Below, piece by piece: positions 169-41,014 of a stretch of 64,000 bases of DNA. Both the position numbers and the translations under genes were made by a program. Position 1 is the stretch's first letter. The number at the start of each line of letters is the position of its first letter. The stretch lies in contig JBAZUA010000004.1 of assembly GCA_041661645.1 (NCBI GenBank), positions 69,067 to 133,066 of the forward strand, given 5' to 3'. Under the pieces are notes generated by a model that did no database searches, had not been told where the DNA came from, and saw nothing but the letters and a program-made list of their open reading frames with translations. This DNA is from Minisyncoccota bacterium. GTDB lineage: Bacteria > Patescibacteriota > Minisyncoccia > Phycocordibacterales > UBA6065.

Positions 169-257
169 GCGTCTAGTATACAGGGCATTGTCGCGGGAGA
201 AAAATGCGGCGCTTGCCACGCTGTTTGCCGGGGTGTAGTCTCTGGCTAGAAATAACC

Positions 258-692: not shown

Positions 693-726
693 GCGAGGGT
701 TGTTTTTTATGTGCTAAAGTAAACTT

Positions 727-1041: not shown

Positions 1042-1178
1042 AAGGGATTTGCTCGTTGGTCACGGATAGTTTTCTCACCGTCGTTCGAAAACTTCCTCGA
1101 CCCCGGCTCGCGGTCTCGCCTGATGGCTCGACATTCGCTCCGCCTTTCAACTCGCGCCATCTCTTCTAATCAGACAAT

Positions 1179-1210
1179 CAAAAAGGCTCCCGAAAGGGGA
1201 GCCTTTTTGA
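1179..1210. terminator. rho-independent terminator (bidirectional hairpin) 3' of tmRNA
   Basis: caAAAAAGGCTCCC-GAAA-GGGGAGCCTTTTTg is a perfect 12-bp stem flanked by A/T runs on both sides. Confidence 0.65.
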
Positions 1211-1216
1211 TTGTTG

Positions 1217-1617
1217 TGGAGATGGCGCGAGTTGAACGCGCGTGCACATGATCTTTCCCGATGCTTCTACGCGATGTAGTCCGTCTTTGCCCCGCGAGGG
1301 GCTTTAGGAAAAGATGCTTTAAGACTGACAGAACGCACCTCTTCCGATTCCCATGCCGCTTTTGAGGGCGGATTCGCTACCCCTCTCGAGAAGAAAGGGG
1401 GGGGCTAGACCGGAGGTATAACATTGGGGTCTCCCGTGCCGGTCGCACAAGAGGTCAACGTCGCTTAGGCTATTGCGTAAGCGAATGAGAAATCTGCTGC
1501 CGTGAAATACGGCGAAGTGGAAGATTTTGCATTTGATGTTTGGGGCAGTTTGAAGAGTTACTCCAGCTCTATCGCGCGCGAAGGGAAGGGAATCACATGT
1601 CGAAGCCCGTCATCCCC
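1217..1617 (-). ncRNA. ssrA: tmRNA (SsrA)
   Basis: Minus strand begins GGGGATGACGGGCTTCGACATGTG, matching the tmRNA 5' consensus GGGGnUGAnnnGGnUUCGAC. It ends ACGCGCGTTCAACTCGCGCCATCTCCA, a tRNA-like T-arm plus acceptor. The acceptor GGGGATG pairs with CATCTCC including a G3.U wobble, the Ala identity element. A candidate tag ORF reads GCA GCA GAT TTC TCA TTC GCT TAC GCA ATA GCC TAA, giving (A)ADFSFAYAIA*. The gene lies directly downstream of smpB. Confidence 0.8.
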
Positions 1618-1643
1618 ATATATTTGCCGGACCGATGTCCGCG

Positions 1644-2087
1644 CTATTCGTATTTCAATGTTCTCTGGCTCTCGCGGTCGCTCTCGCGCCTCTTGATGCT
1701 CTGGCGCTTGTCGAACTCCTTCTTGCCGCGGGCGACCGCTATGTCCACCTTGACCACTCGGCCCTTATTATACACCTTAATTGGCACTATTGTCAACCCA
1801 CGTCCGGCCTCGAGATTCGCCAGCTTGTTGAGCTCTGCCTTGTTCAAAAGGAGCTTACGGACGCGGAGGGGGTCATAGTCCTTGGGGGTGTTGGCGACCT
1901 GATAGGGAGGGATGTTCAGCTGTATGAGAAAGCCCTCGCCGCCGCGGATGATGACGTGCGCGCCCTCCAGGGTTGCGCCGTGGGCGCGCAGGGACTTTAC
2001 CTCGAGCCCGAGCAGCTCGATGCCCGCCTCGAATGATTCGAGGATCTCGTAGTCATAGAACGCCTTTTTGTTCTCTGCCAGGGCCAT
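1644..2087 (-). CDS. smpB: SsrA-binding protein SmpB
   Basis: 147 aa protein with an SmpB-typical sequence (KKAFYDYEILE...GLEVKSLR...LLLNKAEL) and a basic C-terminal tail. Confidence 0.95.
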   Translation of the reverse strand: MALAENKKAFYDYEILESFEAGIELLGLEVKSLRAHGATLEGAHVIIRGGEGFLIQLNIPPYQVANTPKDYDPLRVRKLLLNKAELNKLANLEAGRGLTIVPIKVYNKGRVVKVDIAVARGKKEFDKRQSIKRRESDRESQRTLKYE

Positions 2088-2133
2088 GAATCCTATGCTA
2101 TCACATTCGACGGTTCTGCTATACTATCGACAT

Positions 2134-4068
<1,935 letters not shown>

Positions 4069-4094
4069 CCGCGGCCCTGGAGGTTTTTGAGGCA

Positions 4095-4130
4095 AAAAAG
4101 CACCACCTAGATGAGGTGGTGCTTGTGTTC
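4095..4130. terminator. terminator hairpin between ftsH (+) and the convergent minus-strand gene
   Basis: GCACCACC-TAGATGA-GGTGGTGC stem with AAAAAA upstream (a T-run on the minus strand) and TTGTGTT downstream. Confidence 0.5.
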
Positions 4131-4535
4131 GAGAGCGAGGAGCGCGGTCCAGGTCTCGGCAGACTGATCGTCGTCCAGGAGCTGTTCGAAGGGTATCCAG
4201 ATTGCCGTGTGGGGGTTTTTGACTCGACATCTCTCGTCGACGAATTCGGCACAGGCCCACACGTCTATCGTTCCTTTGCCGTGGGAGAGGCGCATTGGCG
4301 CGTATGCCGTAAAGGTCCTCCGGAACGCGAGCTCATCCTCGATGTATGTGTTTCGTATGTCGAGGGCGACCGCCTCGGCCTGGGCGTTTCTTGGCAGTGG
4401 CGCGTTGGGAAGCCAGAGCGACTCTTGGCTGCCCCTGACCTTTTTTATGCAGAGGACTCTGTGATGATCCACGCGAAGTCCGACGAAGACGACTATCGAT
4501 TCATGAAGGATCGGGGGAAGCTTTTTCAGTTTCAT
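4107..4535 (-). CDS. hypothetical protein
   Basis: 142 aa ORF with no motif I recognise. Its stop codon lies inside the terminator hairpin loop. Confidence 0.45.
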   Translation of the reverse strand: MKLKKLPPILHESIVVFVGLRVDHHRVLCIKKVRGSQESLWLPNAPLPRNAQAEAVALDIRNTYIEDELAFRRTFTAYAPMRLSHGKGTIDVWACAEFVDERCRVKNPHTAIWIPFEQLLDDDQSAETWTALLALEHKHHLI

Positions 4536-4738
4536 GTCAGTTGATTGCTGAACGGTGGAGTTTCGAAATCTGGTATAAGTATACTCCTCAACGCTCCGTG
4601 CGCCACGTCATTCGACAATATGATTTTTCTCACCTGTAATGAGCCTGACATGAACCATTTTACCCGCCCGAAACGTATTATCGAGCAGGGGGATATGTCT
4701 CGACGTTCCCTCTTGGTTGCGGACCCATCGTCACAACA

Positions 4739-4768
4739 AGCCCCGACCCGACCTCGGGGCTTTTTCGT
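4739..4768 (+). terminator. terminator-like hairpin upstream of tRNA-Ile
   Basis: AGCCCCGA-CCCGACC-TCGGGGCT followed by TTTTTCG. Confidence 0.4.
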
Positions 4769-4825
4769 TGTCTGGGTCGCGGGGCTGTTGTGCGGAGGGC
4801 CTCCGTAGTTTAGTATAGCCAGTAT

Positions 4826-4899
4826 GCGCCCATAGCTCAGTTGGTTAGAGCACAGAGCTTATACCTCTGGGGTCCATGGTTCGAGTCCATGTGGGCGCA
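4826..4899 (+). tRNA. tRNA-Ile with genomically encoded UAU anticodon
   Basis: Cloverleaf folded by hand. Acceptor GCGCCCA/TGGGCGC is perfect. D-arm GCTC-AGTTGGTTA-GAGC. Anticodon stem CAGAG/CTCTG with loop CTTATAC (U33, anticodon TAT, A37). T-arm CATGG-TTCGAGT-CCATG. Discriminator A; no encoded CCA. Confidence 0.85.
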
Positions 4900-4922
4900 C
4901 TGTTAAGCTAACATAGATTCAA

Positions 4923-5672
4923 ATGGACAAGACGGTCTCTGACAATGAAAAGACTTGGGATATCGTAGCGGATCAATTTTTTGAGGCTTCCGCTTTGCCC
5001 GTATGGGGGCCCTTTGATGTGGGACGCGACCTGAATTTGATTCCCGATATAAAAAACAGGACTTTCCTTGAAGTTGGTTGTGGCAGTGGGAGGTCGATAA
5101 AATATCTCCTTAAGCAAGGTGCCGAGAAGGTGTACGGACTCGACCTCTCGCAGAGACAGCTGGACGAGGCTACTCGGTATAATAAGACAAGCGTCGATCA
5201 AGGGAAGGTCGTTCTGATTAAGGGCCCGATGGAGGAAAAGATTGATATCGAACCAGTTGACGTCGTCTGTTCTATATACGCCATCGGCTGGACTCCTGAT
5301 CCCAAGGCTACCTTTAAGAGTATTTATTCGTATTTGAAACCAGGCGGGCTTTTCATCTGGAGTTGGGATCATAGCTTTTTCTCAGATGTCAGGTATGAGG
5401 ACGGAAGGTGTGTCGTTGTTCGTTCTTACCATGATGAGAAGACGGTCACGCTGAGGAACTGGAAAAACTCGGGTGCTGATGCATATATTACCTACAGAAA
5501 GACGTCGACATGGTTTCAGTTGTTGAGAGAGGCCGGGTTTGAGGTTGTCGGATACCATGAGCCTGCGGCAGGCAGTTCTGACAAAATTTATGATGATCCC
5601 GTAAGATATTATTCCATCCAGAAAGCAGAGAAGGTGCCCTCAAGCTTTATTTTTGTCTGCAGAAAAAATTGA
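4923..5672 (+). CDS. class I SAM-dependent methyltransferase
   Basis: Motif I LEVGCGSGRSIKYL with acidic residue (VYGLDLS), motif IV-like VDVVCSIYAIGW, and LKPGGLF. 249 aa. Confidence 0.85.
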   Translation: MDKTVSDNEKTWDIVADQFFEASALPVWGPFDVGRDLNLIPDIKNRTFLEVGCGSGRSIKYLLKQGAEKVYGLDLSQRQLDEATRYNKTSVDQGKVVLIKGPMEEKIDIEPVDVVCSIYAIGWTPDPKATFKSIYSYLKPGGLFIWSWDHSFFSDVRYEDGRCVVVRSYHDEKTVTLRNWKNSGADAYITYRKTSTWFQLLREAGFEVVGYHEPAAGSSDKIYDDPVRYYSIQKAEKVPSSFIFVCRKN

Positions 5673-5740
5673 GGACGCAAAATCACGGGATGTCGTCTGA
5701 CGGGCCTGAGGCTTATAGCCGACACGGCACCCTCTTTCAC

Positions 5741-5769
5741 TTGCGGTTTTAATATATTGTGGTATAAAG
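5741..5769 (+). promoter_or_regulatory. putative sigma70 promoter for the PEP-CTERM-like gene
   Basis: TTGCGG-N16/17-TATAAA about 65 nt upstream. RBS AAAGGAGG sits 8 nt before the ATG at 5832. Confidence 0.3.
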
Positions 5770-5831
5770 AGTTCATAAGCTCTTTGCCACAACGGTAGAG
5801 ACTTTTCAACCTCAAAGAAAGGAGGCCCGCG

Positions 5832-6479
5832 ATGAGACACATCGTAGCCCTGATGGCGCTTTTCAGCGTCTTGTCGGTACCGAGTCGGGCCCTTGTGCTC
5901 CAGTACTCGTTTTCAGGTACGTTCTCGAGTTCTGATTTTTCCTCGATTCTGGTTGGGGACTCGTTCTCCGACATGGTCACCATCGACTATTCCGCGCCGG
6001 CGGTCAATTCTGCGGGGGTCGATTTTACCTTCGCCGTCACGTTCGTCGGCGGTATGACGGGAGGCTCGGTGATTCTTGGCAACGGCACCTCGTGGGGCAC
6101 AGGTCAAAATTCACCATACATGGAGAGCGACGCTCAGACTGATCCGTTCTTCCTGTTCCCGATCATCCTGACGCCGACGTCCCTGATTATCGATGGCTTC
6201 GAGATCAACGACGTGAACGTTCAGATTCCGGTCGGAAATGCCTTTAACATGGGCACTGGCGGAACGATGTCCCATTATTTCCCCAACACGGGAGAGCTGC
6301 CTGATTTGGTTGGCGGGTGGTTTGTCATAAACCACCGTGATGGGTCGGGCGGCATCATTGCCGAGGCATATGGGGATATCACAAGTGCCTCTGTCACGGT
6401 AATCCCCGAGTCTTCCTCCTGTGCCTTGGCCTTTGGCGTCCTGGCCCTGGTCGCGATGTGTATTCGCCGCCGTCCGTGA
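5832..6479 (+). CDS. secreted protein with PEP-CTERM-like C-terminal sorting signal
   Basis: N-terminal signal peptide MRHIVALMALFSVLSVPSRA. C-terminus VIPESSS-CALAFGVLALVAMCI-RRRP is a PE(P/S) motif followed by a hydrophobic helix and an Arg cluster. Confidence 0.6.
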   Translation: MRHIVALMALFSVLSVPSRALVLQYSFSGTFSSSDFSSILVGDSFSDMVTIDYSAPAVNSAGVDFTFAVTFVGGMTGGSVILGNGTSWGTGQNSPYMESDAQTDPFFLFPIILTPTSLIIDGFEINDVNVQIPVGNAFNMGTGGTMSHYFPNTGELPDLVGGWFVINHRDGSGGIIAEAYGDITSASVTVIPESSSCALAFGVLALVAMCIRRRP

Positions 6480-6545
6480 TTCATCAGATCCATGTGGTCC
6501 CATCAGTTCAAGCCGCCCTCGAGTTTAACTCGGGAGGCGGCTTTT

Positions 6546-8765
6546 TTATTCGAAATGTATTCTTTGCTTCTCGCGGCGGGACAGTTCCTCGCGGACGAGG
6601 GGCAGGGCGGCGAGCGTATCGTCAGCCTCGACGAGCCGCAATGCCTCGGCGCGAGCCGCCTCCACCATTTTTATATTTTGAATTGCTTCCATGGCCACGT
6701 CGCTCACGCCCCATTGCTTCTTTCCATATAATTGTCCGGTGCCTCTAAATTTCAGATCAAACTCAGCCAATTCAAATCCATTCTTTGCCGTGGTCAGGGC
6801 CTTCAGTCGGTCCAGGGTCTTGTCGCCCTTGCTCTCGGAGAACAGGAAGCAGTGTGCCTGATGATTCGAGCGCACGACGCGCCCGCGCAGCTGGTGCAGT
6901 TGGGAGAGTCCGAACCTCTCCGCGCCTTCAATAAGTATCACCGTGGCATTGGGTACGTTCACCCCGACCTCGACCACTGACGTCGCCACCAGGATGTGTA
7001 TCTTGCCCGCCTTGAACTCCATCATGACCCGCTCCTTTTCCGCATCCTTCATCTTTCCGTGCAGGACGCCTATCTCGTACTCCCTGAACACGCTTTTCTT
7101 GAGCCTCTTCGCCTCCTCGACGACCGATTTCGAGAGCAGGGCGTTCTCCATGGTCGGGTCTGGCTCGTCGATGCGGGCGCAGATGACATAGGCCTGACGT
7201 CCGTCTGCGAGTTCGCGGCGCATCTTCTCGTACATGGCGTCGCGGGTGGATGGAATGACTACCTCGGTGATGATGGGTTTGCGTCCTACGGGCATTTGAT
7301 CGAGCAGGGTAAGGTCGAGGTCTCCGTATATGGTCAGGGCCAAGGTGCGGGGGATGGGGGTTGCCGTCATGGAAAGCAGGTGCGGGTGAATCTTGTCCTT
7401 GCGCACGAGTTTCTGCCTTTGCGCAGTTCCGAAGCGATGCTGCTCGTCGATGATGACATAGGCGAGGTTCTTGAACTCGACGCTTTTCTGTATGAGAGCA
7501 TGGGTGCCGATGAGTATCGATATCTCGCCCGATGCCACCCATTTTAAAAGCTGTGACCTCGATATGTCGGTCCAGTCCTGTCTAACGCCATTTCGAATGG
7601 TTGCGACCTTGGCGGGAAACTTGCGACAACCCGATCCTGTGATGAGGGCGATATTGATGGGGAGATGCCTGAAATATTCGATGAAGGACTCGAAATGCTG
7701 GGTGGCGAGTATTTCCGTCGGGGCCATATAGGCGACCTGAAGCGTCCCATAATCCTGCCCACGTGGTCGCGTCATAATCGCCGCATATGCGGTGGTGGCG
7801 GCCACGGCGGTCTTGCCCGACCCCACGTCTCCCTCGAGCAGGCGCGACATGGCATGGCCTTTCTTGAAGTCGGCGAGCACGTCGGCGGTGGCCTTTGCCT
7901 GCGCCTCGGTCATGGCAAAGGGGAAGCGTGACAGGAATCTGTCCACGACCTCTTTCGTTGGCTCGATGACGAAGGCGGGATTCTTCTTCCATTCCTTTCT
8001 CTCCCTCTGTCGCTCGAGCTGTATGTAGAAGATCTCCTCGAAGGCGAATCGTTTGCGGGCCGCCGTGGCGTCGCCCTCCTTTTGCGGTGCGTGTATCCAG
8101 ATGATGGCGGTCGTGATGGTGGGCAGATTGTATTTCTCGAGAATGTCGGCGGGCAGGGACTCTCGCATTGTGTCGAGTATGCCGCTCTTCAATATCTTCT
8201 GCACGGCATGATACATCCAGTTCGAGGTGATGCCTCGGGACTCGGGATATACGGGATAGAGGGTGTGCGACGGGCCGTCCTCGCCGAACAAAGAGCCTGC
8301 TGTGGCCGACGGCATTCTGTCGATGCGCTCGATCTGGGGATTGGAAAGGTAGAGCTCACCGTCCTTCTTGCGGGCGGACACCTTTCCCTCGACGCGGACT
8401 ATGGCGCCCTCGGGGATCATCTTGGCGAGATAGGGCTGATTGAACCAGACGGCCTTGATATGGCCGGTCTCGTCCGAAATCTGCCCGTCGGCCATGGCAA
8501 TCTTGGTCCTAAAGCCCTTGGACATCTTGAGCTTGGACACCGTGCCGAATATGACGGCGCTGTCGCCGGCGGAAAGTGCGCCGATGCTCTTTGACGCCGA
8601 GGCGTCTCCATAGCGGGCGGGGAAGTGATAGAGCAGGTCTTCGATGGTGACGATGCCCATACGTCTCAAGGCCTCCTTCTGGGGGAGCTGAAGGCGGAAG
8701 TGTTCCTCGACGCGGGAGTGGGGATACATGTGAGGTATTGTATCATCGTGATAAACTGGAAGCAC
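6546..8765 (-). CDS. recG: ATP-dependent DNA helicase RecG
   Basis: Wedge/OB N-terminal domain, helicase motifs GDVGSGKT, DEQHRFG and TATPIPRT, and C-terminal helicase domain. The true start may be an internal Met (e.g. MGIVTIEDLL at about 8660), because the 8765 start abuts the divergent downstream gene. Confidence 0.93.
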   Translation of the reverse strand: MLPVYHDDTIPHMYPHSRVEEHFRLQLPQKEALRRMGIVTIEDLLYHFPARYGDASASKSIGALSAGDSAVIFGTVSKLKMSKGFRTKIAMADGQISDETGHIKAVWFNQPYLAKMIPEGAIVRVEGKVSARKKDGELYLSNPQIERIDRMPSATAGSLFGEDGPSHTLYPVYPESRGITSNWMYHAVQKILKSGILDTMRESLPADILEKYNLPTITTAIIWIHAPQKEGDATAARKRFAFEEIFYIQLERQRERKEWKKNPAFVIEPTKEVVDRFLSRFPFAMTEAQAKATADVLADFKKGHAMSRLLEGDVGSGKTAVAATTAYAAIMTRPRGQDYGTLQVAYMAPTEILATQHFESFIEYFRHLPINIALITGSGCRKFPAKVATIRNGVRQDWTDISRSQLLKWVASGEISILIGTHALIQKSVEFKNLAYVIIDEQHRFGTAQRQKLVRKDKIHPHLLSMTATPIPRTLALTIYGDLDLTLLDQMPVGRKPIITEVVIPSTRDAMYEKMRRELADGRQAYVICARIDEPDPTMENALLSKSVVEEAKRLKKSVFREYEIGVLHGKMKDAEKERVMMEFKAGKIHILVATSVVEVGVNVPNATVILIEGAERFGLSQLHQLRGRVVRSNHQAHCFLFSESKGDKTLDRLKALTTAKNGFELAEFDLKFRGTGQLYGKKQWGVSDVAMEAIQNIKMVEAARAEALRLVEADDTLAALPLVREELSRREKQRIHFE

Positions 8766-8777
8766 AACACATCATTC

Positions 8778-9671
8778 GTGGATACGCTCAAAAAAATAGC
8801 CCTAATCATCATAATCATTGCCTCGGGAGCGACCTCTTTCTACATATGGAACAAGAAGCCCTGCGACTCTCCCATAACATACAGGCTGGGCACGTGGAGT
8901 GATAAATTCGGCGTGAGCAAGGCGGATTTCCTGAAGGCGGCGGCCGATGCCGGGGCTCTCTGGGATGAGGCGGCAGGCAAGACGCTATTCGTCTATGACC
9001 CGTCAGGTGATATTTCCGTCAACCTGGTCTATGACGGGCGTCAGGAGGCGACAGATCGAAGCAAGGTACTTGAGTCAAGGATAGGGAAGGTCGGACAGTC
9101 GGCGGAATCGGTGAAGGCCGACCTCGATACCCTCAGGGCTCGCTATGAAAAGGCGAGCGAGGCATACAAGCTGTCTGTCTCGGCATTCAAGAAGGAGCAG
9201 GAGGACCTTTCATCGCAGGTCTCGTATTGGAACGAGAGGGGAGGGGCGCCGAGCAAGGAATATGACAAGCTCGTGAGCGCCGAGACCGCCCTCAAGCAGT
9301 CTCTCGTGTCGCTCGAGGCCGAGCGCCTCGCGGTCAACGGCCTTTCGGATCAGGTCTCGGCTCTCGTCGACGCCTATAACGGTCTCGTTAGGAACATAAA
9401 TTCAAATGTCGATGCGGTGAACAAGTTGTCAGATAGGGAGTTCGAGCAGGGACAGTATGTTTCGAGCGCGAGCGGACAGGAGATAGATGTCTATCAGTTC
9501 GCCGATAGGACAAAGCTCGTGCGCGTTCTGGCGCACGAGCTCGGGCATGCTCTTGGAATCGAGCATAACGATGATCCTGAGTCGATTATGTACTATCTGG
9601 ACAAAGGGAAGAGCCTGGTGCTTTCAGTCGCCGACGAGGCGAGCCTTGGGCTTGCTTGCGGAATGAAGTAG
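8778..9671 (+). CDS. secreted zinc metalloprotease (matrixin/metzincin-like HExxHxxGxxH) with central coiled-coil
   Basis: C-terminal HELGHALGIEHNDDPESIMYY fits the metzincin motif plus Met-turn. N-terminal TM/signal IALIIIIIASGATSFYIW. The middle is rich in coiled-coil-like heptads (LDTLRARYEKASEAYKL...). GTG start at 8778 chosen; the ORF track start at 8625 would overlap recG. Confidence 0.7.
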   Translation: MDTLKKIALIIIIIASGATSFYIWNKKPCDSPITYRLGTWSDKFGVSKADFLKAAADAGALWDEAAGKTLFVYDPSGDISVNLVYDGRQEATDRSKVLESRIGKVGQSAESVKADLDTLRARYEKASEAYKLSVSAFKKEQEDLSSQVSYWNERGGAPSKEYDKLVSAETALKQSLVSLEAERLAVNGLSDQVSALVDAYNGLVRNINSNVDAVNKLSDREFEQGQYVSSASGQEIDVYQFADRTKLVRVLAHELGHALGIEHNDDPESIMYYLDKGKSLVLSVADEASLGLACGMK

Positions 9672-9674
9672 GGG

Positions 9675-9974
9675 CTACTTGAGGAGGTCAGCAGGGTAAT
9701 TGACGCCGGCGTTTGAGGCGGTCGAGGTACCGGTAGGGCAGACGAACTGGCAGTTTGGTCCGGTTCGGCCGACATAGGTTCCGTTAGGGCACATCTTTGC
9801 GTCCATGGTGCAGGCTACCGCGCTGTTCGTGCCGGTGGCCGCGTTGTTCGCAATGTCGGTGGTTGAGGGCGTGCCGGTGCCCGAGAACATGAAGTATGCC
9901 CCGACTCCGACAAGGACGATGCCCGCCGCCCAAAGACCCATCTTTGCTCCCGCGCTCATTGTTTTTGGTTCCAT
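9675..9974 (-). CDS. small secreted Cys-containing protein
   Basis: 99 aa with TM/signal GLWAAGIVLVGVGAYFMF, then a Thr/Gly-rich region with 4 Cys (ACTMDAKMCPNG...CQFVCP). Confidence 0.45.
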   Translation of the reverse strand: MEPKTMSAGAKMGLWAAGIVLVGVGAYFMFSGTGTPSTTDIANNAATGTNSAVACTMDAKMCPNGTYVGRTGPNCQFVCPTGTSTASNAGVNYPADLLK

Positions 9975-9996
9975 AAATGCTGTGATTATACTGTTA

Positions 9997-10833
9997 TTAC
10001 GTTATTGATATGATGTTTCTTTTGACCGAGACGAAACCCTCCATTTTCAGATCGTCGAGGTTCCTCTGTATGTCTGCCTTCTCCTTGCCCAGAGCGACGA
10101 AGTGTTCGATGACCAGTTTTTGCCTCCGGGGTCCTTTCATGACGAACTGAAGCAGGTTGGAGCGCAATTCACGATTCGAGCCCTTGAAGGGGGACTGTCT
10201 GGCGTGATGGGCGCTTTTACGAGACGGGTTCGGCAGACTTGACTTGAGATGGACCCCGTAGTCCATGAGCGCATAGTACCACACCCTCGGATTTAATGTG
10301 TCGAGGGTCTTTTCGATGAGGGGCATGAGCTCCTTGTCGGTGACGGTGCCCCTTTTCGACGCGGGGGACGATTTTTTGCCCGCAAAGAAGCAGTGTATAT
10401 AGACCGCGCGGATATTTGTCTCTATGAATGGCGTGGCGATGCCGAAGGCGAAGGCGAGAAGGGCGCCGCGCGTCGACTGCCCGATGCCGGGGAGGGCCTC
10501 CAGCTGCGCGGCGTCCCGCGGAAACTTTCCGCCATGCTCGGCAACGATCGCCTGGGCCGCCCGTCGCAGGTTCAGCGCCCGACGATTGTATCCGAGGCCT
10601 TTCCAGACCGAGAGGAGGGACACCGTCGGCGCGGCGGCAAGGTCGCTGACTGTCGGGAACGCGGCCAGGAACTCATTGTATTTGTGAAGCACCCTGGCCA
10701 CCTGCGTCTGCTGGAGCATTATCTCGGACACGAGGATTCTGTACGGGTCATGGGTTTTTCGCCATGGCAAATCGTGTCGGCCGTGGGCCGCATGATGGTC
10801 GAGAATCATTTTCCTGAATGTCGCCGTTCTCAT
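9997..10833 (-). CDS. HhH-GPD superfamily DNA glycosylase (MutY/Nth-like adenine glycosylase)
   Basis: ILVSEIMLQQTQV...WKGLGYNRRA...LPGIGQSTRGA is a helix-hairpin-helix/GPD signature. No 4Cys Fe-S cluster loop is recognisable. C-terminal extra domain. Confidence 0.8.
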   Translation of the reverse strand: MRTATFRKMILDHHAAHGRHDLPWRKTHDPYRILVSEIMLQQTQVARVLHKYNEFLAAFPTVSDLAAAPTVSLLSVWKGLGYNRRALNLRRAAQAIVAEHGGKFPRDAAQLEALPGIGQSTRGALLAFAFGIATPFIETNIRAVYIHCFFAGKKSSPASKRGTVTDKELMPLIEKTLDTLNPRVWYYALMDYGVHLKSSLPNPSRKSAHHARQSPFKGSNRELRSNLLQFVMKGPRRQKLVIEHFVALGKEKADIQRNLDDLKMEGFVSVKRNIISIT

Positions 10834-10885
10834 GTCGTCTACTGTACTAAAAAGCCGGCGACTTGGGAAAGTCGCCGGCAGATAT

Positions 10886-11380
10886 CTATTTGAGGAGGAA
10901 TCTCTGAGACTCTTCCCGAATCCATTCGTTCAGGTGAACTGACAGGTTGGCGTCCCCATCCATGCCGGTGCCTGGACCTGGAATATTGAGGAAGTCTCCG
11001 ACCCTGATGAACTTGCCCAGAACCGCATGTTCCGCGTCAAACCTTTTTGCCAGGCTTGGATGGCTGGAGTTTGGGTGTTCGGGCACATCGAATGCCGTGA
11101 GGAGGTGTCTGAGGAAAAATCCCCGATACCCCTTTATCAGCTCCTTTTCCCCCTCGCCGGTGACCATTCCTTCCTCTTTGAGCATTTCCCCGTTGATGAT
11201 CCAGCGAATGCCCCATACGATGCCACCTGCCTTTCTCGGCCTTTTGATGTTGAGATGGCCTGAGCCTGTCGTTATGGAGAGGCAGTTCTCATCCATGTTT
11301 GCTCGGTTGATCCGATTGCCGATTGCCGACTTGTTCCACCAGACTGGCGGATTTTCGAGAGAGTAAGGTTCCGTGCTCAT
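10886..11380 (-). CDS. hypothetical protein
   Basis: 164 aa ORF with good coding appearance but no motif I can assign. Confidence 0.45.
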   Translation of the reverse strand: MSTEPYSLENPPVWWNKSAIGNRINRANMDENCLSITTGSGHLNIKRPRKAGGIVWGIRWIINGEMLKEEGMVTGEGEKELIKGYRGFFLRHLLTAFDVPEHPNSSHPSLAKRFDAEHAVLGKFIRVGDFLNIPGPGTGMDGDANLSVHLNEWIREESQRFLLK

Positions 11381-11492
11381 TATTAGTGTCTTTGATTGTT
11401 TGCGTGCTGACTGTGTCCTACACTACAATTAAATCCATCCTTGTCAATCAGGTATAGAAAAAGGCGATTGAGTGTGATATTGTCTCTCGTAC

Positions 11493-11581
11493 GGAGACGT
11501 GTCAGAGTGGTCTAACGTGCATCTTTGCTAAAGATGTGTACCCTTTATACGGTACCGAGGGTTCGAATCCCTCCGTCTCCG
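11493..11581 (+). tRNA. tRNA-Ser (GCU anticodon, long variable arm)
   Basis: Acceptor GGAGACG/CGTCTCC. Anticodon stem CATCT/AGATG with loop TTGCTAA (anticodon GCT). Long extra arm GTGTACCCTTTATACGGTAC. T-arm GAGGG-TTCGAAT-CCCTC. Discriminator G. Confidence 0.9.
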
Positions 11582-11591
11582 CCGATACAAA

Positions 11592-11622
11592 AACGAGCAT
11601 CTGTCAAGATGCCGTTTTTTTG
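11592..11622 (+). terminator. rho-independent terminator after tRNA-Ser
   Basis: ACG-A-GCATCT-GTCA-AGATGC-CGTTTTTTTG. Confidence 0.7.
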
Positions 11623-11819
11623 TTCGGTGGAGACGAGTGGGCGCGTTGCGCCCGCGTGAGGGATTCGGAGCCTGTTTGAGATATTTTCGAGTACGGAGTA
11701 CGATGAAAATATCCAAACAGGGTACTGGTCCTGTAAGGACCGATTATCCCTCCGCCTCCCCCAGATTAATATGTATTTAGTCGAGTTTACCTGTATACTT
11801 TCTTTAAGATAAATTATTT

Positions 11820-13058
11820 ATGAAGAAAATCTTCAGAGAGTACCATCAATTTACGGATAAGGAGTTTCAAAAAATATGGAAAGAAGGGCTTTTTGTGTTT
11901 GATACAAACACTCTTTTGAACATGTATCGCTATAGTCGCAAGACGGTTGATGCATATTTTGATGTGCTAAAAGGGCTGAAGAAGAGCAGTCAGCTTTGGA
12001 TTCCACATCAGGTTGGTTTTGAATTCTATGAGAATAGAATTAATGTTATATCTGAATATGAAAAGTCGTATGATGAGATGCAGTCGATTCTTAATAAGGC
12101 AAAGACAGATATCGAATCTAGGTACAAGGATCATCCCTTTCTTAATCTTTCTGACATAAAGAAAGATATGGATAGTGGGCTTTCGGCGGTTGAGTTGAAG
12201 CTTAAAAAAGCAAAAGCCGACCATCCTAAATGGCTCGAGGAGGATGATGTTCTTACGAAGCTGAACGAACTATTTGACGGGAGTGTCGGTACTGGTTATA
12301 CGGAAGAGAGGCTTTGTGAAATAAAGAAGGAGGGGAAGGAGAGGTATGAAAAAAAGACCCCGCCTGGTTTTAAAGATGATAAAAAATCTGAGGATAAAAA
12401 ATATGGTGATCTGATATTGTGGTATCAGATAATCGAGAACGCTAAACAGGCAAAGAAACCTGTAATTTTGGTTTCTGGTGACGTTAAGGAAGATTGGTGG
12501 CTTGAAAAAGATGGTAAAAAACTTATGCCTTTACCCCAGCTTAAGAAGGAGCTTTTTGATAAAGCTGGAGTTTCTTTTCACATATATACCTCGGACAGGT
12601 TCTTGGAGCTTTCAGGAACAAAAGAAAAGAAAATTGATGATAGTACCATTAAAGAGGTTAGGAAAATTCGAGAGCTTGAAGAAAAGAGAATGATGTCTCG
12701 ACGATCAGAACTTCCCGAAAAAGAGTATTATTCCAGAAGCCCGTATCGCCACGTTTCAGAGTTTGTCTCCATTATCCCTTTGTTGGAAGAAATCATCCTC
12801 ATCTTGAGGAGTGTGGACATTCCTCCTCCTTACCGGAGTGATCTTGAACAGTCGATGCAGAATTTGTTAGAAACGCGTCACAGGATGGCGCATGGGGAAG
12901 TTGATAAGTTGGGTTTATATCGCTTAGGTCGAGAGGTGTCTTTTGTCGTGGGTCGTTTCTTGGCCCTTGGACTCGTCGATCCCGAGCCTTCTGCGAAACT
13001 GAAGGAGTTGCTCGATCGCGTAGAGTACTCTAATCATAGAATGCAGAGATATCTTTAG
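11820..13058 (+). CDS. PIN-like nuclease domain protein with C-terminal HEPN-like Rx4H motif
   Basis: N-terminal GLFVFDTNTLLNMYRY (PIN first Asp), later acidic positions (FEFYEN, ILWYQIIEN, VSGDVKEDWW). C-terminal RHRMAHGE matches HEPN Rx4-6H. 412 aa, lysine-rich, low GC. Confidence 0.6.
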   Translation: MKKIFREYHQFTDKEFQKIWKEGLFVFDTNTLLNMYRYSRKTVDAYFDVLKGLKKSSQLWIPHQVGFEFYENRINVISEYEKSYDEMQSILNKAKTDIESRYKDHPFLNLSDIKKDMDSGLSAVELKLKKAKADHPKWLEEDDVLTKLNELFDGSVGTGYTEERLCEIKKEGKERYEKKTPPGFKDDKKSEDKKYGDLILWYQIIENAKQAKKPVILVSGDVKEDWWLEKDGKKLMPLPQLKKELFDKAGVSFHIYTSDRFLELSGTKEKKIDDSTIKEVRKIRELEEKRMMSRRSELPEKEYYSRSPYRHVSEFVSIIPLLEEIILILRSVDIPPPYRSDLEQSMQNLLETRHRMAHGEVDKLGLYRLGREVSFVVGRFLALGLVDPEPSAKLKELLDRVEYSNHRMQRYL

Positions 13059-13061
13059 TGT

Positions 13062-13538
13062 ATGAGTAAAAATATCACCTTCGCCCGTAATCTTGTAAAA
13101 GGAAAGATAGCAGAAACAATTTTTGCGCAGATGTTGCGTGAGGTTGGCAATTTCACAGTTCTTGAGTTTGGATATGAAAAAATCATTCCTGAACTTATAC
13201 AGACCGAATACGATACAAATAAGGAAACGTTGGAGATTTTAAGAACTGCTCCTGATTTCGCTGTTATCAACAAGAAAGAGAAGGGGGTTAGACTTGTTGA
13301 GGTTAAGTATCTCCATCGGATTAATACTGAGTATGTCTACCGTTATGCCCATAGAATGGCAGAGTCTTGGAACCCTTCTTTTCTCTTTGTGGCCACTCAA
13401 GAGGGTTTCTTTTATGACGAGGTTCGTACGATTGTAGAAAACAAGGGTGTCATAGCGCCTCTTGATGATTCACAGATTCCAAAGACCATCCAAGAGGAAT
13501 ATTTGAAGATACTGAAGGATTTTGAGGCTAATAATTAA
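13062..13538 (+). CDS. small PD-(D/E)xK nuclease-fold protein (putative)
   Basis: E...PDFAV-x12-VRLVEVKY arrangement (D...ExK) in a 158 aa protein. 3-nt gap to upstream gene and 3-nt gap to downstream gene suggest an operon. Confidence 0.5.
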   Translation: MSKNITFARNLVKGKIAETIFAQMLREVGNFTVLEFGYEKIIPELIQTEYDTNKETLEILRTAPDFAVINKKEKGVRLVEVKYLHRINTEYVYRYAHRMAESWNPSFLFVATQEGFFYDEVRTIVENKGVIAPLDDSQIPKTIQEEYLKILKDFEANN

Positions 13539-13541
13539 ACC

Positions 13542-14333
13542 ATGTCTCAATTATCACAAATCATAAAATCTCTCGAAAATAACGTATCTGTAGATGCTGT
13601 TTTACTCGTCGGTTCACAGAGTAAAAATGAGCACAAGGAATACAGTGATATCGATCTTGTTGTCATCCTTAAGGAAAAGGCATCAGATTTACAATCACTC
13701 TTTCAGTATGTTGATGGCAAGCCATGTGACATCTTTTTCTTTGACGGGGCAATGTTGCAATTATTCCTAGGAGCTAAAACTATCCCTGCAAATAAGATGG
13801 ATGCGGTTTTGCTTGGCTGGCTCGACACAGCACACGTATATTTTGATAAATCAGGTGTCGTAAAGTCTCTCATGGGCAATAAGGAGAGTCTCAAGGCAAA
13901 GCTCGAAGTGCCTGTAGAGGAGATGGTTTCTTTTGAATCGAAGATTAATGCTGGCTATATTACGAACAAGAGATATTTTGATTCAGCTAATCCTGAATAT
14001 CATGATGCGCTTGAGACAAAGCTTCTTCAGGATGTATACAACATACTTATTGGTTATTTTGAATTTAGAGCAATACCGTGGAGAGGGGAGAAAACAATGC
14101 TTCGACATCTAAAGGAACACGACAAAGCTTTTTATGATCTATATATGTCATATATACGAGCTACAACTCTCAAGGAAAAATTTAAACTCTATGAACAACT
14201 GGTGTCATTGGTATTCTATGGAGAGTATCGTTTGTGGGACAGAGAGGCCGTAAGACCATACACAAATCGACCTCTTAAAAAAGAAGAACAGGCTCACCTT
14301 GTTGGATATTGGAATGGACTGATTAAGTCTTAA
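13542..14333 (+). CDS. Pol-beta-superfamily nucleotidyltransferase (ANT/Lnu-like or minimal NTase)
   Basis: LLVGSQSKNEHKEYSDIDLVVIL matches the hG[GS]x9-13Dh[DE]h NTase motif. About 150 aa C-terminal helical domain. 263 aa. Confidence 0.7.
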   Translation: MSQLSQIIKSLENNVSVDAVLLVGSQSKNEHKEYSDIDLVVILKEKASDLQSLFQYVDGKPCDIFFFDGAMLQLFLGAKTIPANKMDAVLLGWLDTAHVYFDKSGVVKSLMGNKESLKAKLEVPVEEMVSFESKINAGYITNKRYFDSANPEYHDALETKLLQDVYNILIGYFEFRAIPWRGEKTMLRHLKEHDKAFYDLYMSYIRATTLKEKFKLYEQLVSLVFYGEYRLWDREAVRPYTNRPLKKEEQAHLVGYWNGLIKS

Positions 14334-14342
14334 AAAGACCCC

Positions 14343-14470
14343 GTCCCGAGTACTTCAAGAACTCGCTTTAAAAAATTCTAAACTACCCATATGGGGTAAT
14401 GAAGTAGGGGGTCTATACCCGAGTGGCCCGCCATTCTTCCCCGTGAGGGGACTAGATGCAAGGATGGATT
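14343..14470 (+). repeat. partial copy D of the roughly 200-bp cassette-leader repeat family
   Basis: Shares cccgagtacttca..., agggggtctatacccgagtggcccgcc and gtgaggggactagat(g/a)ca(a/g)gga(t/c)gg with copies at 15341, 16428, 17500 and 18437. Confidence 0.6.
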
Positions 14471-14496: not shown

Positions 14497-14525
14497 TTGA
14501 CGTACATCCTTAAAAGATATATAAT
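14497..14525 (+). promoter_or_regulatory. consensus-like sigma70 promoter at 3' end of repeat copy D
   Basis: TTGACG-N17-TATAAT, with exact spacing counted from the sequence, reading into the downstream ORF. Confidence 0.5.
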
Positions 14526-15280: not shown

Positions 15281-15340
15281 CTTCACCCGTCAGCTCGACA
15301 CAGGAAACCCCTGTCGCGAGATGGCGGGTTTTCTTTTGTT

Positions 15341-15565
15341 TAAAAAAGGACCCCTACTTGGGATTCGAACTAAACTTTAAGAGTGAGACGTTATGTTTTA
15401 AGCCACCAAATCGGTGCCGTTCGAATCGCTTCAGACCCGCACAAAAAACTTTCTTTCGGAGTGACCCGAGTGCCTCGATTTTCGGCTCGAAACAAGGCTT
15501 AAAAAGAACGTTCGAATCCCAGATGGGTGAGGGGACTAGATACAGGGACGGAATTCGCCTCATGC
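15341..15565 (+). repeat. copy A of cassette-leader repeat with 11-bp terminal inverted repeats
   Basis: TIR-L GGGATTCGAAC at 15360-15370 and TIR-R GTTCGAATCCC at 15510-15520. Internal core ccgttcgaatcgcttcagacccgc...ctttcggagtgacccgagtgcctcgattttcggct. 3' flank cagatgggtgaggggactagatacaggg is conserved with copies B and D. Confidence 0.65.
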
Positions 15566-15581: not shown

Positions 15582-15611
15582 TTGACATATAGGTATATTT
15601 AGATGTATAAT
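15582..15611 (+). promoter_or_regulatory. sigma70-like promoter with extended -10 at 3' end of repeat copy A
   Basis: TTGACA-N18-(TG)TATAAT located 16 nt upstream of the 15627 ATG. Confidence 0.45.
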
Positions 15612-16400: not shown

Positions 16401-16430
16401 CCCGCATTCGTGCGGGTTTTGTTTTGCTTA
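16401..16430 (+). terminator. rho-independent terminator after the 15627 methyltransferase gene
   Basis: CCCGCA-TTCG-TGCGGG followed by TTTTGTTTTG. Confidence 0.6.
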
Positions 16431-16640
16431 AAAAGAGAGCTCTACGTGGGATTCGAACGAGATTCTGAGAGAGGGTCTATGTTTAGAGCCACGAAATTCC
16501 AGCCGTTCGAATCGCTTCAGACCCGCTAAGAAAACTTTGTTTCGGTGTGACCCGAGTACCTCGATTTTCGGCTGAAAATAACACTCGGATAAAACATTCG
16601 AATCCCAGATGGGTTAGGGGACTAGATACAGGGGTGGATT
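16428..16640 (+). repeat. copy B of cassette-leader repeat
   Basis: TIR-L GGGATTCGAACG at 16448-16459 and TIR-R CATTCGAATCCC at 16595-16606. An 87-bp internal stretch (16504-16590) is identical to copy C (17575-17660). Confidence 0.7.
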
Positions 16641-16692
16641 TGGTTAGTTTTGTTGAGGGCGAGCGGTGTGTTATCAATGCTATACTACCTTC

Positions 16693-17499: not shown

Positions 17500-17682
17500 T
17501 TAGGTAAACGCGCTCGGGATTCGAACGGAATTAGGGTAGAGCACAGGTATATTTCAAGCCACGAAACCCCCGCCGTTCGAATCGCTTCAGACCCGCTAAG
17601 AAAACTTTGTTTCGGTGTGACCCGAGTACCTCGATTTTCGGCTGAAAATAACACTCGGATGGAACGTTCGAATCCCAGATAC
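17500..17682 (+). repeat. copy C of cassette-leader repeat
   Basis: TIR-L GGGATTCGAACG at 17516-17527 and TIR-R CGTTCGAATCCC at 17666-17677. Confidence 0.7.
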
Positions 17683-17747
17683 TTTTTTCGAGTGTATACG
17701 CAGAGTTGTTCACACCATTTTTTCTTGGTCAAATTAGGGTGTAGTAT

Positions 17748-18436: not shown

Positions 18437-18570
18437 TTTAGATAGCGTCCCACGTACTTCAGAAATTCGGTTCGGGAAATGCCAAACTAACCTTGCTGGG
18501 CAATGAGCCAGGGGGTCTATATCCGAGTAGCCCGCCAAGAAAACTTTGTTTCGGAGTGACCCGAGTGCCC
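18437..18570 (+). repeat. partial copy E of cassette-leader repeat
   Basis: cccacgtacttcagaaattcgg...agggggtctatatccgagtagcccgccaagaaaactttgtttcggagtgacccgagtgcc matches the cores of copies A-D. Confidence 0.6.
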
Positions 18571-18635
18571 GAATTAAGTTGTGGTTTTTGTCGTTTGGTG
18601 TGCGTATACTGTATAGGTCTTAATATCTTATTCAT

Positions 18636-19449: not shown

Positions 19450-22400
19450 GTGAATTCACTCGCCAAAACCTTCAGGCCGATCATCTTTGGTTTTATTTTG
19501 GTCTCTGGCCTTTTCCTCTCCTCGCACCAGGTCGCGTTCGCGGATGTCTTGTTTCCAGGCAACATAAGTTCTTGTGGAGAACTAGCCGTTACGGGAACGT
19601 ATACTCTCACATCTGACGTCACGGCCTCGCCTGGGCAGGCCTGCTTCACGGTTTCTTCCAATGATGTGACTTTGGATGGTTTCGGATTCACTGTCTTTGG
19701 CGGCAGCGCTTGGGCAATAGATGCCAGGGCATATGACAACGATCGCGTCACCCTCACGAATGGTGCAAACGCATACACGAACCTTATCGTTAACAACATT
19801 GTCTTATCTGGATTCACTGGGGGAGTGAATATAAGTGGAAACACTGATACGAATGGATCGGGTGCGAATGCTGGTTACGGAGGTGCGGGAGGGGATGTTG
19901 CGGTGTTCTACTCGCCGTCGCTCGGCGTGACGGCGAATGGCGGGAACACCTCAACCTATGGGTACGGAGGCGTCGGAGGAAACATCTCCTTCACCGACGA
20001 GAACCTCAACATCTCGACGAGCAATATCTCCGCTCTCGGCGGTACCGGCACGACGGGTCGCAACACCGATGGGGGACTCACTCTTTCATATACTGGGACT
20101 TTTGCACATTCAAATGTCACCCTGAGCACTCTTTCATATCTTAACGAGAACCTAACCTCATTCGGAACATATGTTGGTGGTACCTATCCGATTGTTCCTG
20201 GCACCGTCTCTTCTTGTGGAACTCTCGCAGGGTCGGGAACTTATACTCTTGCTCAGGATATTACAAATATCTCTGGTACTTGTTTTACTCTTAACTCAAA
20301 CGACGTCTTAATTAATGGAGCAGGTTATTCGATCATCGCAGCACCATCGAATACATCTTTCGCCGTACGAGCAGGAAGCTTCTCTGGCCTCACTATCGCA
20401 TCGACGACTGTTACAGACTTTTCAAACCTAGTTATCTCAAGCTCGACAGTGACCATCTCAGGAAACAATCTTGATCTTTCAAATCAATTTATTGCCGCTG
20501 GATCTCTTACTCTTTCATATACAGGGTCATTGACGAAGACGGGTGCGACAGCCACAGCTTTTAGCGCGCTTACGGTGAATGGTACAAGTTATGGGGCACA
20601 GGCTGCGGGAGTTTTGATGGATTGGGTGGTAAGGGAACAGAGCAGGGGCTGGCGGGGCATCACCTCCTCCGCCGACGGCACGAGGCTTGTCGCGGGTGTC
20701 TATGGCGGCCAGATCTACACATCCGCCGACTCCGGCGCCACCTGGACCGCCCGCGACTCGGCCAGGAACTGGTACTCCGTCACGTCCTCCGCCGACGGAA
20801 CCAGGCTTGCCGCCGTGGTTTTAAGCGGCCAGATCTACACCTCGACAGATTCCGGAGTCACCTGGGCGGCCCGCGACTCGGTCAGGAACTGGTACTCCGT
20901 CACGTCCTCCGCCGACGGCACAAAACTCGCGGCGGTAGTCTCTGGCGGACAGATCTACACCTCGACCAATTCCGGCGCCACATGGAGCGCCCGAGATTCA
21001 AACAGGAGCTGGCAATCTGTCGCCTCCTCCGCCGACGGCACAAAACTCGCGGCGACGGTGAATGGCGGCCAGATCTACACCTCGACAGATTCCGGAGTCA
21101 CCTGGGCGGCCCGCGACTCGGTCAGGAACTGGTACTCCGTCACGTCCTCCGCCGACGGCACAAAACTCGCGGCGGTTGTTTACGGCGGACAGATCTACAC
21201 TTCCACCGATTCTGGTGTCACCTGGACCGCCCGCGACTCGGTCAGGAGCTGGCGATCTGTCGCCTCCTCCGCCGACGGCACGAGGCTTGTCGCGGGTGTC
21301 TATGGTGGCCAGATCTACACATCCACCGACTCCGGCGCCACATGGAGCGCCCGCGACTCGGCCAGGAACTGGTACTCCGTCACCTCCTCCGCCGACGGAA
21401 CCAGGCTTGCCGCCGTGGTTTTAAGCGGCCAGATCTACGCCCACCAGGATGACCCTGCTTCATTCGCTGTGGATATTCTTGTGCCTGTTTCAAGTTCAAC
21501 TGTATCTACCTGGTCTCCAATTGTCTCTTGGGGCACCGCCACATCCTGTTACTACTCGTATAATAATTTTACTTCAACTTCTACGGCAAACTGTGCATTG
21601 AACGGTTCTGATATTTCAAATCCAGGATACGGAGATCGTACATTATATGTGAAAGGCATTGATGCTAATGGGACAATCATTCAGAAAAGCTCTACCTATT
21701 ATTTAGGGCTTCCAATTACACCTATATATCCAATCGCGGGAACCACAGCCACATCTTCAGTTTTTTCTGTTAATTGGGATCCCACAAACGCAGGAAACAT
21801 CACTTCCTGTTATTACTCCTACGACGACTTCATCTCGACTTCGACCGCAAACTGTGCTTCGGAGGGTTCTGACATCTCTGTTCCTGTAGATGGTTCGGCG
21901 ACTCTGTATCTAAAAGCAGTTGATTCAAATGGATTGATAGGTAATTCGAATACTTCATTCATTTATCCTTTTTATTTTGCCCGCGACTCGAACAGGAGCT
22001 GGCTTTCCATCACCTCTTCTTCCGACGGGACCAGGCTCGCCGCGGTTGTTACTAACGGACAAATCTATACGTCCACCGACTCAGGTTCCACATGGACCGC
22101 TCGGGAGTCTAATAGGAACTGGCGTGGCATCACTTCTTCCGCCGACGGAACCAAGCTCGCCGCGTTTGTTCAGAATGGTCAGATTTACACTTCCACCGAT
22201 TCTGGTGTCACCTGGACCGCCCGCGACTCGAACAGGACGTGGTATGGTATCACTTCTTCCGCCGATGGAACCAAGCTTGCCGCTATTGTGAGTGGTGGAG
22301 GCCAGATTTACACTTCCACCGATTCTGGTGTCACCTGGACCGCCCGCGACTCGAATAGGAGCTGGTATTCTGTCACCTCCTCATCCGACGGCACCAAGCT

Positions 22401-41013: not shown

Positions 41014-41014
41014 C

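Follow-up and report, generated by a model that had tools for sequence, protein, structure and literature searches.

A low-GC gene block beside tRNA-Ser(GCU) in a Minisyncoccota bacterium probably belongs to a tRNA-linked variable island with conflict-type genes and is not a new three-gene system

The HEPN ribonucleases (RNases) are marked by an Rx4-6H motif, whose position at a helix end and whose composition have been described by Anantharaman et al. (PMC3710099). The same authors proposed that the eukaryotic endoribonuclease Swt1 was derived from a bacterial defence protein. The PIN_8 family (PF18476) is listed as 'function unknown' in the classification of Matelska et al. (2017, PMC5499597), where it belongs to a VapC-like group and is related to DUF4935/PIN_12; DUF4935 genes are described there as 'usually expressed as mono-cistrons', members of PIN_8 from double-stranded DNA viruses are listed, and HEPN is not mentioned. 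Beyond these two classification papers we found nothing in the literature on PF18476 or on PIN-HEPN proteins. Here we analyse a low-GC block of three genes, g1, g2 and g3, behind tRNA-Ser(GCU) in a 64,000-nt stretch of contig JBAZUA010000004.1 (assembly GCA_041661645.1, Minisyncoccota bacterium), which is called the window in the following. A first-pass annotation had read this block as one undescribed defence or toxin-antitoxin (TA) module. We conclude that the low-GC block is real and that the locus is most probably a tRNA-linked variable island with conflict-type genes, not a new three-gene system.

The anchor of the variable region and the three genes are located as follows:

11493..11583, + strand: tRNA-Ser(GCU), which anchors the variable region (ARAGORN; Rfam tRNA, 47.2 bits)
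11820..13058, + strand: g1, 412 aa, PIN_8 nuclease with a C-terminal four-helix bundle that is probably HEPN-like (list of open reading frames, ORFs)
13062..13538, + strand: g2, 158 aa, single-domain PD-(D/E)xK nuclease (ORF list)
13542..14333, + strand: g3, 263 aa, Pol-beta-type nucleotidyltransferase (NTase; ORF list)

The drop in base composition behind the tRNA that had been noticed at first reading was confirmed. The GC contents of g1, g2 and g3 are 0.403, 0.388 and 0.383, compared with 0.54 for the window overall, 0.553 for positions 1-11400 and 0.552 for positions 18600-64000, and the low-GC stretch extends from about 11600 to about 14750, somewhat past the end at 14340 given before. 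The ORF list likewise agrees with three tightly packed genes on the same strand, with exactly 3 nt between the stop codon and the next ATG at both the g1/g2 and the g2/g3 junction. Neither the composition drop nor the packing of the ORFs is due to chance. The tRNA and the block that follows it are present as described, but the immediate adjacency of the two is not, as g1 starts 236 nt past tRNA-Ser and the gap carries a hairpin of the terminator type and an element that folds strongly. Co-transcription of the three genes is probable here, because the promoter scan gave no promoter-like site inside the block (nor a comparable one upstream of g1) and the terminator scan placed no + strand terminator-like site between the genes or behind g3. 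Two weak + strand sites were placed within g1, at 11895-11911 and 12446-12463.

We consider it likely that the 2.6-kb block forms the portion nearest the tRNA of a region that is variable and was acquired by horizontal transfer in a Candidatus Paceibacterota genome, with three functionally independent accessory genes packed by accident into one transcription unit. Outside the window the genes do not travel together. Neither tblastn nor family hidden Markov models found g1 or g3 at any of 80 g2 loci, which were taken from species-representative genomes with flanks of +/-8 kb. The g3 profile yielded 47 metagenome loci, 36 of them confirmed as g3, and g2 was present at a single one of the confirmed loci (L100). 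For g1, 36 viral contigs from IMG/VR and 7 cellular loci, including Smithella, Planctomycetes and Moranbacteria genomes, contained neither g2 nor g3 and showed no constant neighbour. When the neighbouring ORFs were clustered, the commonest partner occurred in at most 9/80 loci for g2, 11/43 for g1 and 10/54 for g3. The complete trio was found only in assemblies of the same population: two other assemblies with an identical protein share the g1-g2-g3 arrangement. Proteins identical to g1 and g3 have been recorded from a 135-kb contig of a Candidatus Paceibacterota metagenome-assembled genome.

A dedicated system, in which the PIN/HEPN protein and the PD-(D/E)xK protein would act as effectors and the NTase as regulator, would account for the 3-nt packing on one strand, the similar GC contents and the junctions free of terminator-like sites, and each of the three folds occurs commonly in conflict systems. 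The neighbourhood comparison that the first-pass annotation had suggested as a check was run, and the partners of the trio do not recur in the 80 + 36 + 43 independent loci; PADLOC contains no match for g1 or g2, and homology with related genomes breaks at the ORF ends, where different partners follow. The claim of one three-gene module is thereby largely refuted by distribution, and we regard it as highly improbable.

These breakpoints became visible in the closest relatives. The closest g2, in the related genome L183, is 98% identical in amino acids and 86% in nucleotides, and the similarity spans exactly 13062-13538, from the start to the stop of g2. The order in L183 is tRNA-Ser, a PIN_12 gene, g2, a Ser_hydrolase gene and then 96 nt with 86% identity to window positions 14336-14431. 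The PIN_12 gene was considered as a homologue of g1 and rejected (BLASTP E 0.29; by jackhmmer, no other locus has it). The closest g3 is found in L001 (89% aa identity), where window positions 13552-14332 are matched with 85% nucleotide identity and the similarity ends at the ORF limits; the block there consists of an NYN RNase gene, g3 and a GrpB gene between copies of the same repeat family, in a genome that also has the HhH-GPD and M10 peptidase genes of the window. The closest homologues of g3 (85-89% aa identity) are preceded by NYN or by nothing. In L185, tRNA-Ser is followed by a DUF1398 gene and then by g2. The same tRNA-Ser precedes the variable genes in L001, L183 and L185. Judged from these alignments, each gene behaves as a unit of its own, and related genomes combine the same genes differently at the same tRNA. 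The first gene of the block is a PIN_12 gene in L183 (188-1306), an NYN gene in L001 (7408-7947) and the PIN_8 gene with the HEPN-like C-terminus in the window (11820-13058).

The only partial recurrence bears on a smaller unit, namely g2 as a nuclease with g3 as its NTase partner, since the two genes are adjacent with gaps of 3-5 nt in both the window and L100. L100 and the window align without interruption over 1.1 kb across g2 and g3, with a DNA identity of 76.5%. Because this homology is contiguous across both genes, the pair in L100 is a case of common descent and not of independent recurrence. As g3 is missing from 80/80 genome loci of g2, as Ser_hydrolase follows the closest g2, and as the closest g3 homologues have NYN or no gene in front of them, we give a two-gene unit only a small chance.

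The first gene was matched over the full length of the Pfam model PIN_8 (PF18476; E 3.5e-65, 220.6 bits, cut-off 26.1), with g1 aa 24-241 corresponding to model positions 1-227 of 227; it also matched PHROG 9788 with E 7e-67. The segment GLFVFDTNTLLNMY occupies aa 23-36, and the acidic PIN residues D28, E68, D197, D221 and D225 are intact, covering the four to five acidic sites by which a PIN domain was judged. The full-length match and the conserved acidic residues confirm the PIN-like N-terminus that had been proposed for this protein. Structure predictions were made for g1 and g2. The AlphaFold model of g1, built from 95 homologues (predicted local distance difference test score, pLDDT, 84.7), predicts a PIN core into which a long helical segment is inserted, followed by a linker helix, a disordered stretch (298-310) and a C-terminal bundle of four helices (310-330, 336-357, 363-382 and 388-411).

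Among the 95 homologues, the last 120 residues vary far more than the PIN part does. What is best conserved in them is R353-[N/D/H]-x3-H358-G359, which in g1 itself reads:

12876..12893, + strand: RHRMAH (R353-H-R-M-A-H358, aa 353-358), the Rx4H motif of the HEPN-like domain of g1

The arginine is conserved in 68/95 homologues, H358 in 77/95 and G359 in 76/95, and the residue after R353 is N, D or H in 73/95 (56 N, 16 D, 1 H). The motif closes helix 336-357 at the start of a loop; in the Rx4H motif itself, the polar residue after the arginine and the position at a helix end, g1 resembles HEPN RNases such as RiboL-PSP, ApeA, Abi2 and Swt1. When 34 isolated C-terminal segments of the g1 family were compared with Pfam, HEPN families were the commonest weak matches (Apea 7, RiboL-PSP 5 with a best E of 3.4e-5, MAE_28990 2, Swt1 1), and a separate scan of ten of these segments gave pEK499_p136 in one. 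The stretches shown individually in the latter scan cover or adjoin the Rx4H motif, and every match is below the gathering score. A Foldseek search of the g1 model against the Protein Data Bank (PDB) gave no significant match. Of the HEPN call made at first reading, the motif stands, being conserved and placed at a helix end, whereas the family profiles remain sub-threshold throughout; a HEPN-like nature of the C-terminus is probable, not proven.

With the PIN_8 family g1 shares the full model match, the acidic residues and the fact that its homologues usually stand alone, as DUF4935 genes do, and it differs from the family in its C-terminal ~100 aa with the conserved R[N/D/H]x3H-G and the weak HEPN-like profile matches. 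The succession of an N-terminal PIN and a C-terminal HEPN-type helical domain is that of the eukaryotic Swt1 endoribonuclease. The g1 protein may thus unite two RNase domains, PIN and HEPN, in one bacterial protein, which would be the prokaryotic architecture postulated by Anantharaman et al. as the ancestor of Swt1. Its homologues are solitary genes in many phyla and on viral contigs, and they are AT-rich compared with their own hosts (GC 0.285-0.287 versus 0.34-0.43).

The second gene is a genuine PD-(D/E)xK nuclease of a compact family outside Pfam. The restriction-endonuclease-like alpha-beta-beta-beta-alpha-beta core was found, and the catalytic residues E18, P64-D65 and E80-V-K82 are invariant in 76 sequences, which supports the original assignment; the motif residues of the E...PD-x12-EVK arrangement read from the sequence hold, but the spacer does not, as 14 residues lie between D65 and E80. 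The best scores against named families were 15.2 bits for HSDR_N_2 (cut-off 25) and 14.7 bits for TnsA_N, and neither PADLOC nor NCBIfam contained a match for g2. In an exhaustive profile search of 1.84 billion representatives, 492 clusters passed E<=1e-3 (at 50% identity the family comprises about 500), almost all of them single-domain proteins of ~155-165 aa, and the more distant members reached TnsA_N, PDDEXK_15 (25.6 bits, cut-off 27), PDDEXK_7, VRR_NUC and NERD below threshold only. Closest in fold are the archaeal Holliday-junction resolvases Hjc/Hje and the homing endonuclease I-Ssp6803I, itself of the PD-(D/E)xK type. From these g2 is set apart by an identity of only 15-20%, by extra helices at 42-61 and 141-156, by its sporadic occurrence in variable or defence-rich neighbourhoods and by the lack of a Pfam family. 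No conserved flanking target, such as a homing-site or attC-like motif, was present in 53 loci. Neighbours of g2 elsewhere include Type I, IIG and II restriction-modification (R-M), AbiD, Nhi/AbiO-like and PDC-S37/Hhe-like proteins; because g2 is often beside R-M and Abi genes, these neighbourhoods suggest that it might have a role in defence or DNA conflict.

The third gene carries the motif G24-S25-x10-D36-I-D38 (nt 13611-13655), in which G24, S25, D36 and D38 are invariant, and is matched by the Pfam families NTP_transf_2 (1.3e-8, 35.5 bits, cut-off 21) and Polbeta (2.5e-8, 34.4 bits, cut-off 26.9), in both cases over aa 4-51 only. The superfamily pattern hG[GS]-x9-13-[DE]h[DE]h thus coincides with a family match, and the Pol-beta NTase recognised from GS-x10-DID is upheld for the N-terminal ~50 aa. 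The remaining ~200 aa have no relative in Pfam or the PDB, even with a 34-sequence profile; the g3 profile found only the NTase motif of KNTase/MNT in the PDB, and neither single-protein nor profile sequence searches of the PDB returned anything beyond this motif for the trio. Homologues of g3 form 86 clusters, mostly from Paceibacterota. The neighbours of its relatives are methyltransferases, GrpB, S51 peptidase, DUF1801 and AAA_17 kinase-like genes. In L002 (5181-6755), L005 and L006 a large serine recombinase of 524 aa lies about 1.2 kb upstream of the g3 homologue; it is not among the called genes of the otherwise identical L003 and L004, where the coordinates are unchanged, which may be a gene-calling difference or a polymorphism.

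Three further interpretations depend on the kind of NTase that g3 represents. It could be an ANT/Lnu-type small-molecule (antibiotic) nucleotidylyltransferase, a reading that concerns g3 only and is compatible with the independence of the three genes. The GS-x10-DxD Pol-beta active-site motif is shared with KNTase/ANT(4'), Lnu, AadA and the MNT antitoxins, and the total length of ~255-265 aa with a helical C-domain with the ANT/Lnu group: length and layout, an NTase motif followed by ~200 aa of helical domain, fit ANT(4')/KNTase (253 aa), Lnu(H) (256 aa) and AadA, weak matches were obtained to these families as well as to ANT(9) and Pfam Adenyl_transf, and the neighbourhoods of the homologues just listed agree with such a function. 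The NCBIfam scores against the resistance enzymes, however, were 19.8 for Lnu(H) (cut-off 540), 14.6 for ANT(4')-I (350), 13.5 for ANT(9) (340) and 13.3 for AadA (375), and the matches cover aa ~2-59 and not the full length. The similarity to resistance NTases and to MntA is confined to the motif of ~45 residues, no resemblance of the C-domain to KNTase_C or to any other family was detected, and, unlike those enzymes, the g3 family is mostly found in Patescibacteria. The layout thus supports the ANT/Lnu alternative left open by the first-pass annotation, whereas membership in a named clade, at 13-20 bits against 340-540 and more than 300 bits short of the curated cut-offs, does not hold; we consider this assignment possible but doubtful.

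The similarity to MNT antitoxins bears on another combination, in which g1 (HEPN) and g3 (NTase) would form a type VII HEPN-MNT-like TA pair, with g3 nucleotidylylating and thereby silencing the HEPN site and g2 as a passenger. The Rx4H motif of g1, a weak match of g3 to MntA in NCBIfam (E 1.9e-5, 24.5 bits), PDC-S09 NTase matches in PADLOC and the MNT motif matches in the PDB point in this direction. But the MntA score is 35 bits short of the cut-off of 60, g3 with 263 aa and a large C-domain is not a minimal MNT of ~100-140 aa, and the homologues of g1 are solitary in 43/43 loci, while those of g3 adjoin NYN/GrpB, methyltransferases or S51 and have no HEPN neighbour. In the window itself g1 and g3 are not adjacent, and such a pair seems extremely improbable. 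A CBASS-like combination (cyclic-oligonucleotide-based antiphage signalling system, CD-NTase plus effector), which had also been mentioned, was rejected: no match to a cGAS/DncV-like cyclase was obtained, neither to a CBASS cyclase model in PADLOC nor to Pfam SMODS at E<=1.

As three independent genes, the members of the block would have the following roles. The g1 protein would be a self-contained, RNA-cleaving effector of the conflict or abortive-infection type, normally monocistronic and also carried on viral contigs, with a Mg-dependent N-terminal PIN_8 site and a metal-independent HEPN-type R[N/D/H]x3H site, resembling stand-alone Abi- or toxin-like RNases. The g2 protein would be a small Hjc-like DNA endonuclease, probably dimeric, that has spread sporadically through genomes of the candidate phyla radiation (CPR) and others. 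For g3, the substrate of the NTase would most simply be a small molecule, as in ANT/Lnu enzymes.

Several points weigh against the interpretation as independent genes packed by accident. The 3-nt gaps, the junctions without terminator and the lack of an internal promoter are also what is expected of a functional module, and the adjacency of g2 and g3 recurs in L100. A PIN-superfamily RNase gene stands first in three related islands, which could hint at a loose functional theme, or may reflect the commonness of such genes in mobile regions. The loci were collected by exact peptide patterns with +/-8 kb flanks, and partners that are distant or dispersed could have escaped this collection. The g1 C-terminus reaches HEPN families only below threshold, and the suggested defence roles rest on guilt by association, judged without a background control.

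The structure of the region around the block was also analyzed. The additional features are:

11597..11621, + strand: terminator-like hairpin with T-run after tRNA-Ser (terminator scan)
11627..11760, + strand: strongly folding tRNA-like element with an imperfect copy of the tRNA-Ser 3' end as its last part
14342..14470, + strand: right-hand boundary repeat of the g1-g3 block (variant repeat)
14497..14525, + strand: strong promoter-like site TTGACG-17-TATAAT (11/12 matches), which serves the next cassette and not the trio
15322..15559, + strand: intergenic cassette repeat, copy 1 (repeat search; nhmmer E 1.9e-78; alignment)
16410..16644, + strand: intergenic cassette repeat, copy 2 (repeat search, nhmmer, alignment)
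17502..17713, + strand: intergenic cassette repeat, copy 3 (repeat search, nhmmer, alignment)
18531..18573: partial fourth copy of the cassette repeat

The RNA of positions 11584-11760 folds with z = -8.2, and 0/200 shuffles fold as well. Within it, the element of ~130 nt at 11627-11760 has a four-way, tRNA-like fold, starts with the 5' heptamer of tRNA-Ser, GGAGACG, and ends in a copy of the tRNA-Ser 3' end at 11744-11760 (ATCCCTCCGcCTCCcCC) that matches at 15/17 positions; L001 repeats the tRNA 3' end without mismatch over 19 nt, 130 nt past its tRNA. Homologues of positions 11584-11760 occur in L001 (~3760-3905 and 4628-4814) and in L185 (1645-1793). The element was rejected as an intron-containing tRNA, as ARAGORN made no call with introns allowed, and it has no Rfam family.

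At its right-hand end the block is bounded by the variant repeat at 14342-14470, which forms direct repeats with 18446-18537 and with 15527-15554 / 16613-16640, and which is 86% identical to L183 2402-2497, right after the different block of that genome, and 78% identical to L001 9318-9419. The + strand genes after g3 (an unknown ORF, a Methyltransf_11 enzyme, a 272-aa protein and a small membrane protein) are unrelated, and from 15322 on they are separated by repeats of ~200 nt. A full copy consists of a terminator hairpin at its start, a degenerate copy of the tRNA-Ser 3' end (GTTCGAATCgCT..CCGC-ACAAAAAC) and a core, AAAACTTTnTTTCGGnGTGACCCGAGTnCC, that is invariant across four genomes. Further copies, always in the orientation of the genes, are found in L001 (3863-4019, 4532-4650, 7237-7346), L183 (2493-2612, 3050-3168) and L185 (1805-1897). 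Two explanations for the repeats were rejected, namely tandem duplication of paralogues, as the flanked ORFs are unrelated, and a structured RNA, as the fold has a z of -1.5, 0/25 pairs covary and no Rfam family exists. A sigma-70-type promoter match, TTGACA-18-TATAAT (12/12), is located at 15582-15611, 16 nt upstream of the methyltransferase ORF (15627). Together with the site at 14497-14525 this suggests that at least two of the downstream cassettes may bring their own promoters, unlike integron cassettes.

The locus resembles tRNA-linked islands and the cassette arrays of sedentary chromosomal integrons (with VCR-type, i.e. Vibrio cholerae, repeats, or clusters of attC sites lacking integrases, CALINs) in that it starts at a tRNA whose 3' end is duplicated downstream, in that unrelated genes of the same strand lie between repeats of ~200 nt, and in that its content differs between close relatives. 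It differs from integron arrays in that the repeats are longer than attC and have no supported hairpin covariation, and in that g1-g3 are only 3 nt apart, with no repeat in between. The scan of 20 larger ORFs of the 64-kb window, which included all flanking ones, gave no match to an integrase or any other recombinase family. Membership among integrons or CALINs was rejected, there being no recombinase family and the repeats folding no better than shuffles, a comparison that tests the attC part only partly, as it was made without a dedicated attC model.

The variable region was presumably built by repeated integration and by recombination at displaced copies of the tRNA 3' end. A bolder proposal, which we rate as rather unlikely, is that the 3' side of tRNA-Ser(GCU) is an accretion site for small cassettes, integron-like but with no local integrase. 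The units would then be ~1-3 kb long with one to three ORFs, bounded by the ~200-nt repeats with their AAAACTTTnTTTCGGnGTGACCCGAGTnCC core and tRNA 3'-end copy, and would be swapped between close relatives with ORF-precise breakpoints; such an exchange would supply nuclease, NTase and methyltransferase genes to a streamlined CPR genome, and the ~200-nt repeat would possibly be the att-type site of the hotspot.

Outside the variable region the window contains a type IV pilus cluster at 38668-48265 (PilM, PilB/T2SSE, a PilT-like protein, PilC/T2SSF and a prepilin peptidase A24). Type IV pilus clusters are common in CPR genomes, and the flanks are thus ordinary chromosome. Two giant ORFs are located at 19450-29703 (3417 aa) and 31067-37219 (2050 aa); the former carries tandem repeats of 120 nt (40 aa) in long arrays at ~20587-22840 and is probably a repetitive surface protein. 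A tRNA-Ile with the anticodon TAT, uncommon in bacteria, was found by ARAGORN at 4826-4900, directly followed by a SAM methyltransferase gene (4923-5672), and a tmRNA lies at 1216-1617 on the - strand.

The neat operon of PIN/HEPN, PD-(D/E)xK and NTase genes looks like a defence system, and the independence of its parts stops a false lead. What the parts offer is of a different kind. For the function-unknown PIN_8 family a probable HEPN RNase domain can now be named, so that a bacterial PIN-HEPN protein becomes testable via D28 and R353/H358 mutants, and g2 defines a compact PD-(D/E)xK family that is absent from Pfam and often located next to R-M and Abi genes. The cassette array is a more unusual feature than the g1-g3 trio, and the locus, rather than the trio, may be the real novelty: a cassette region with conserved repeats, linked to tRNA-Ser in an ultra-small CPR genome, could reveal how accessory genes are exchanged among genomes of this kind.

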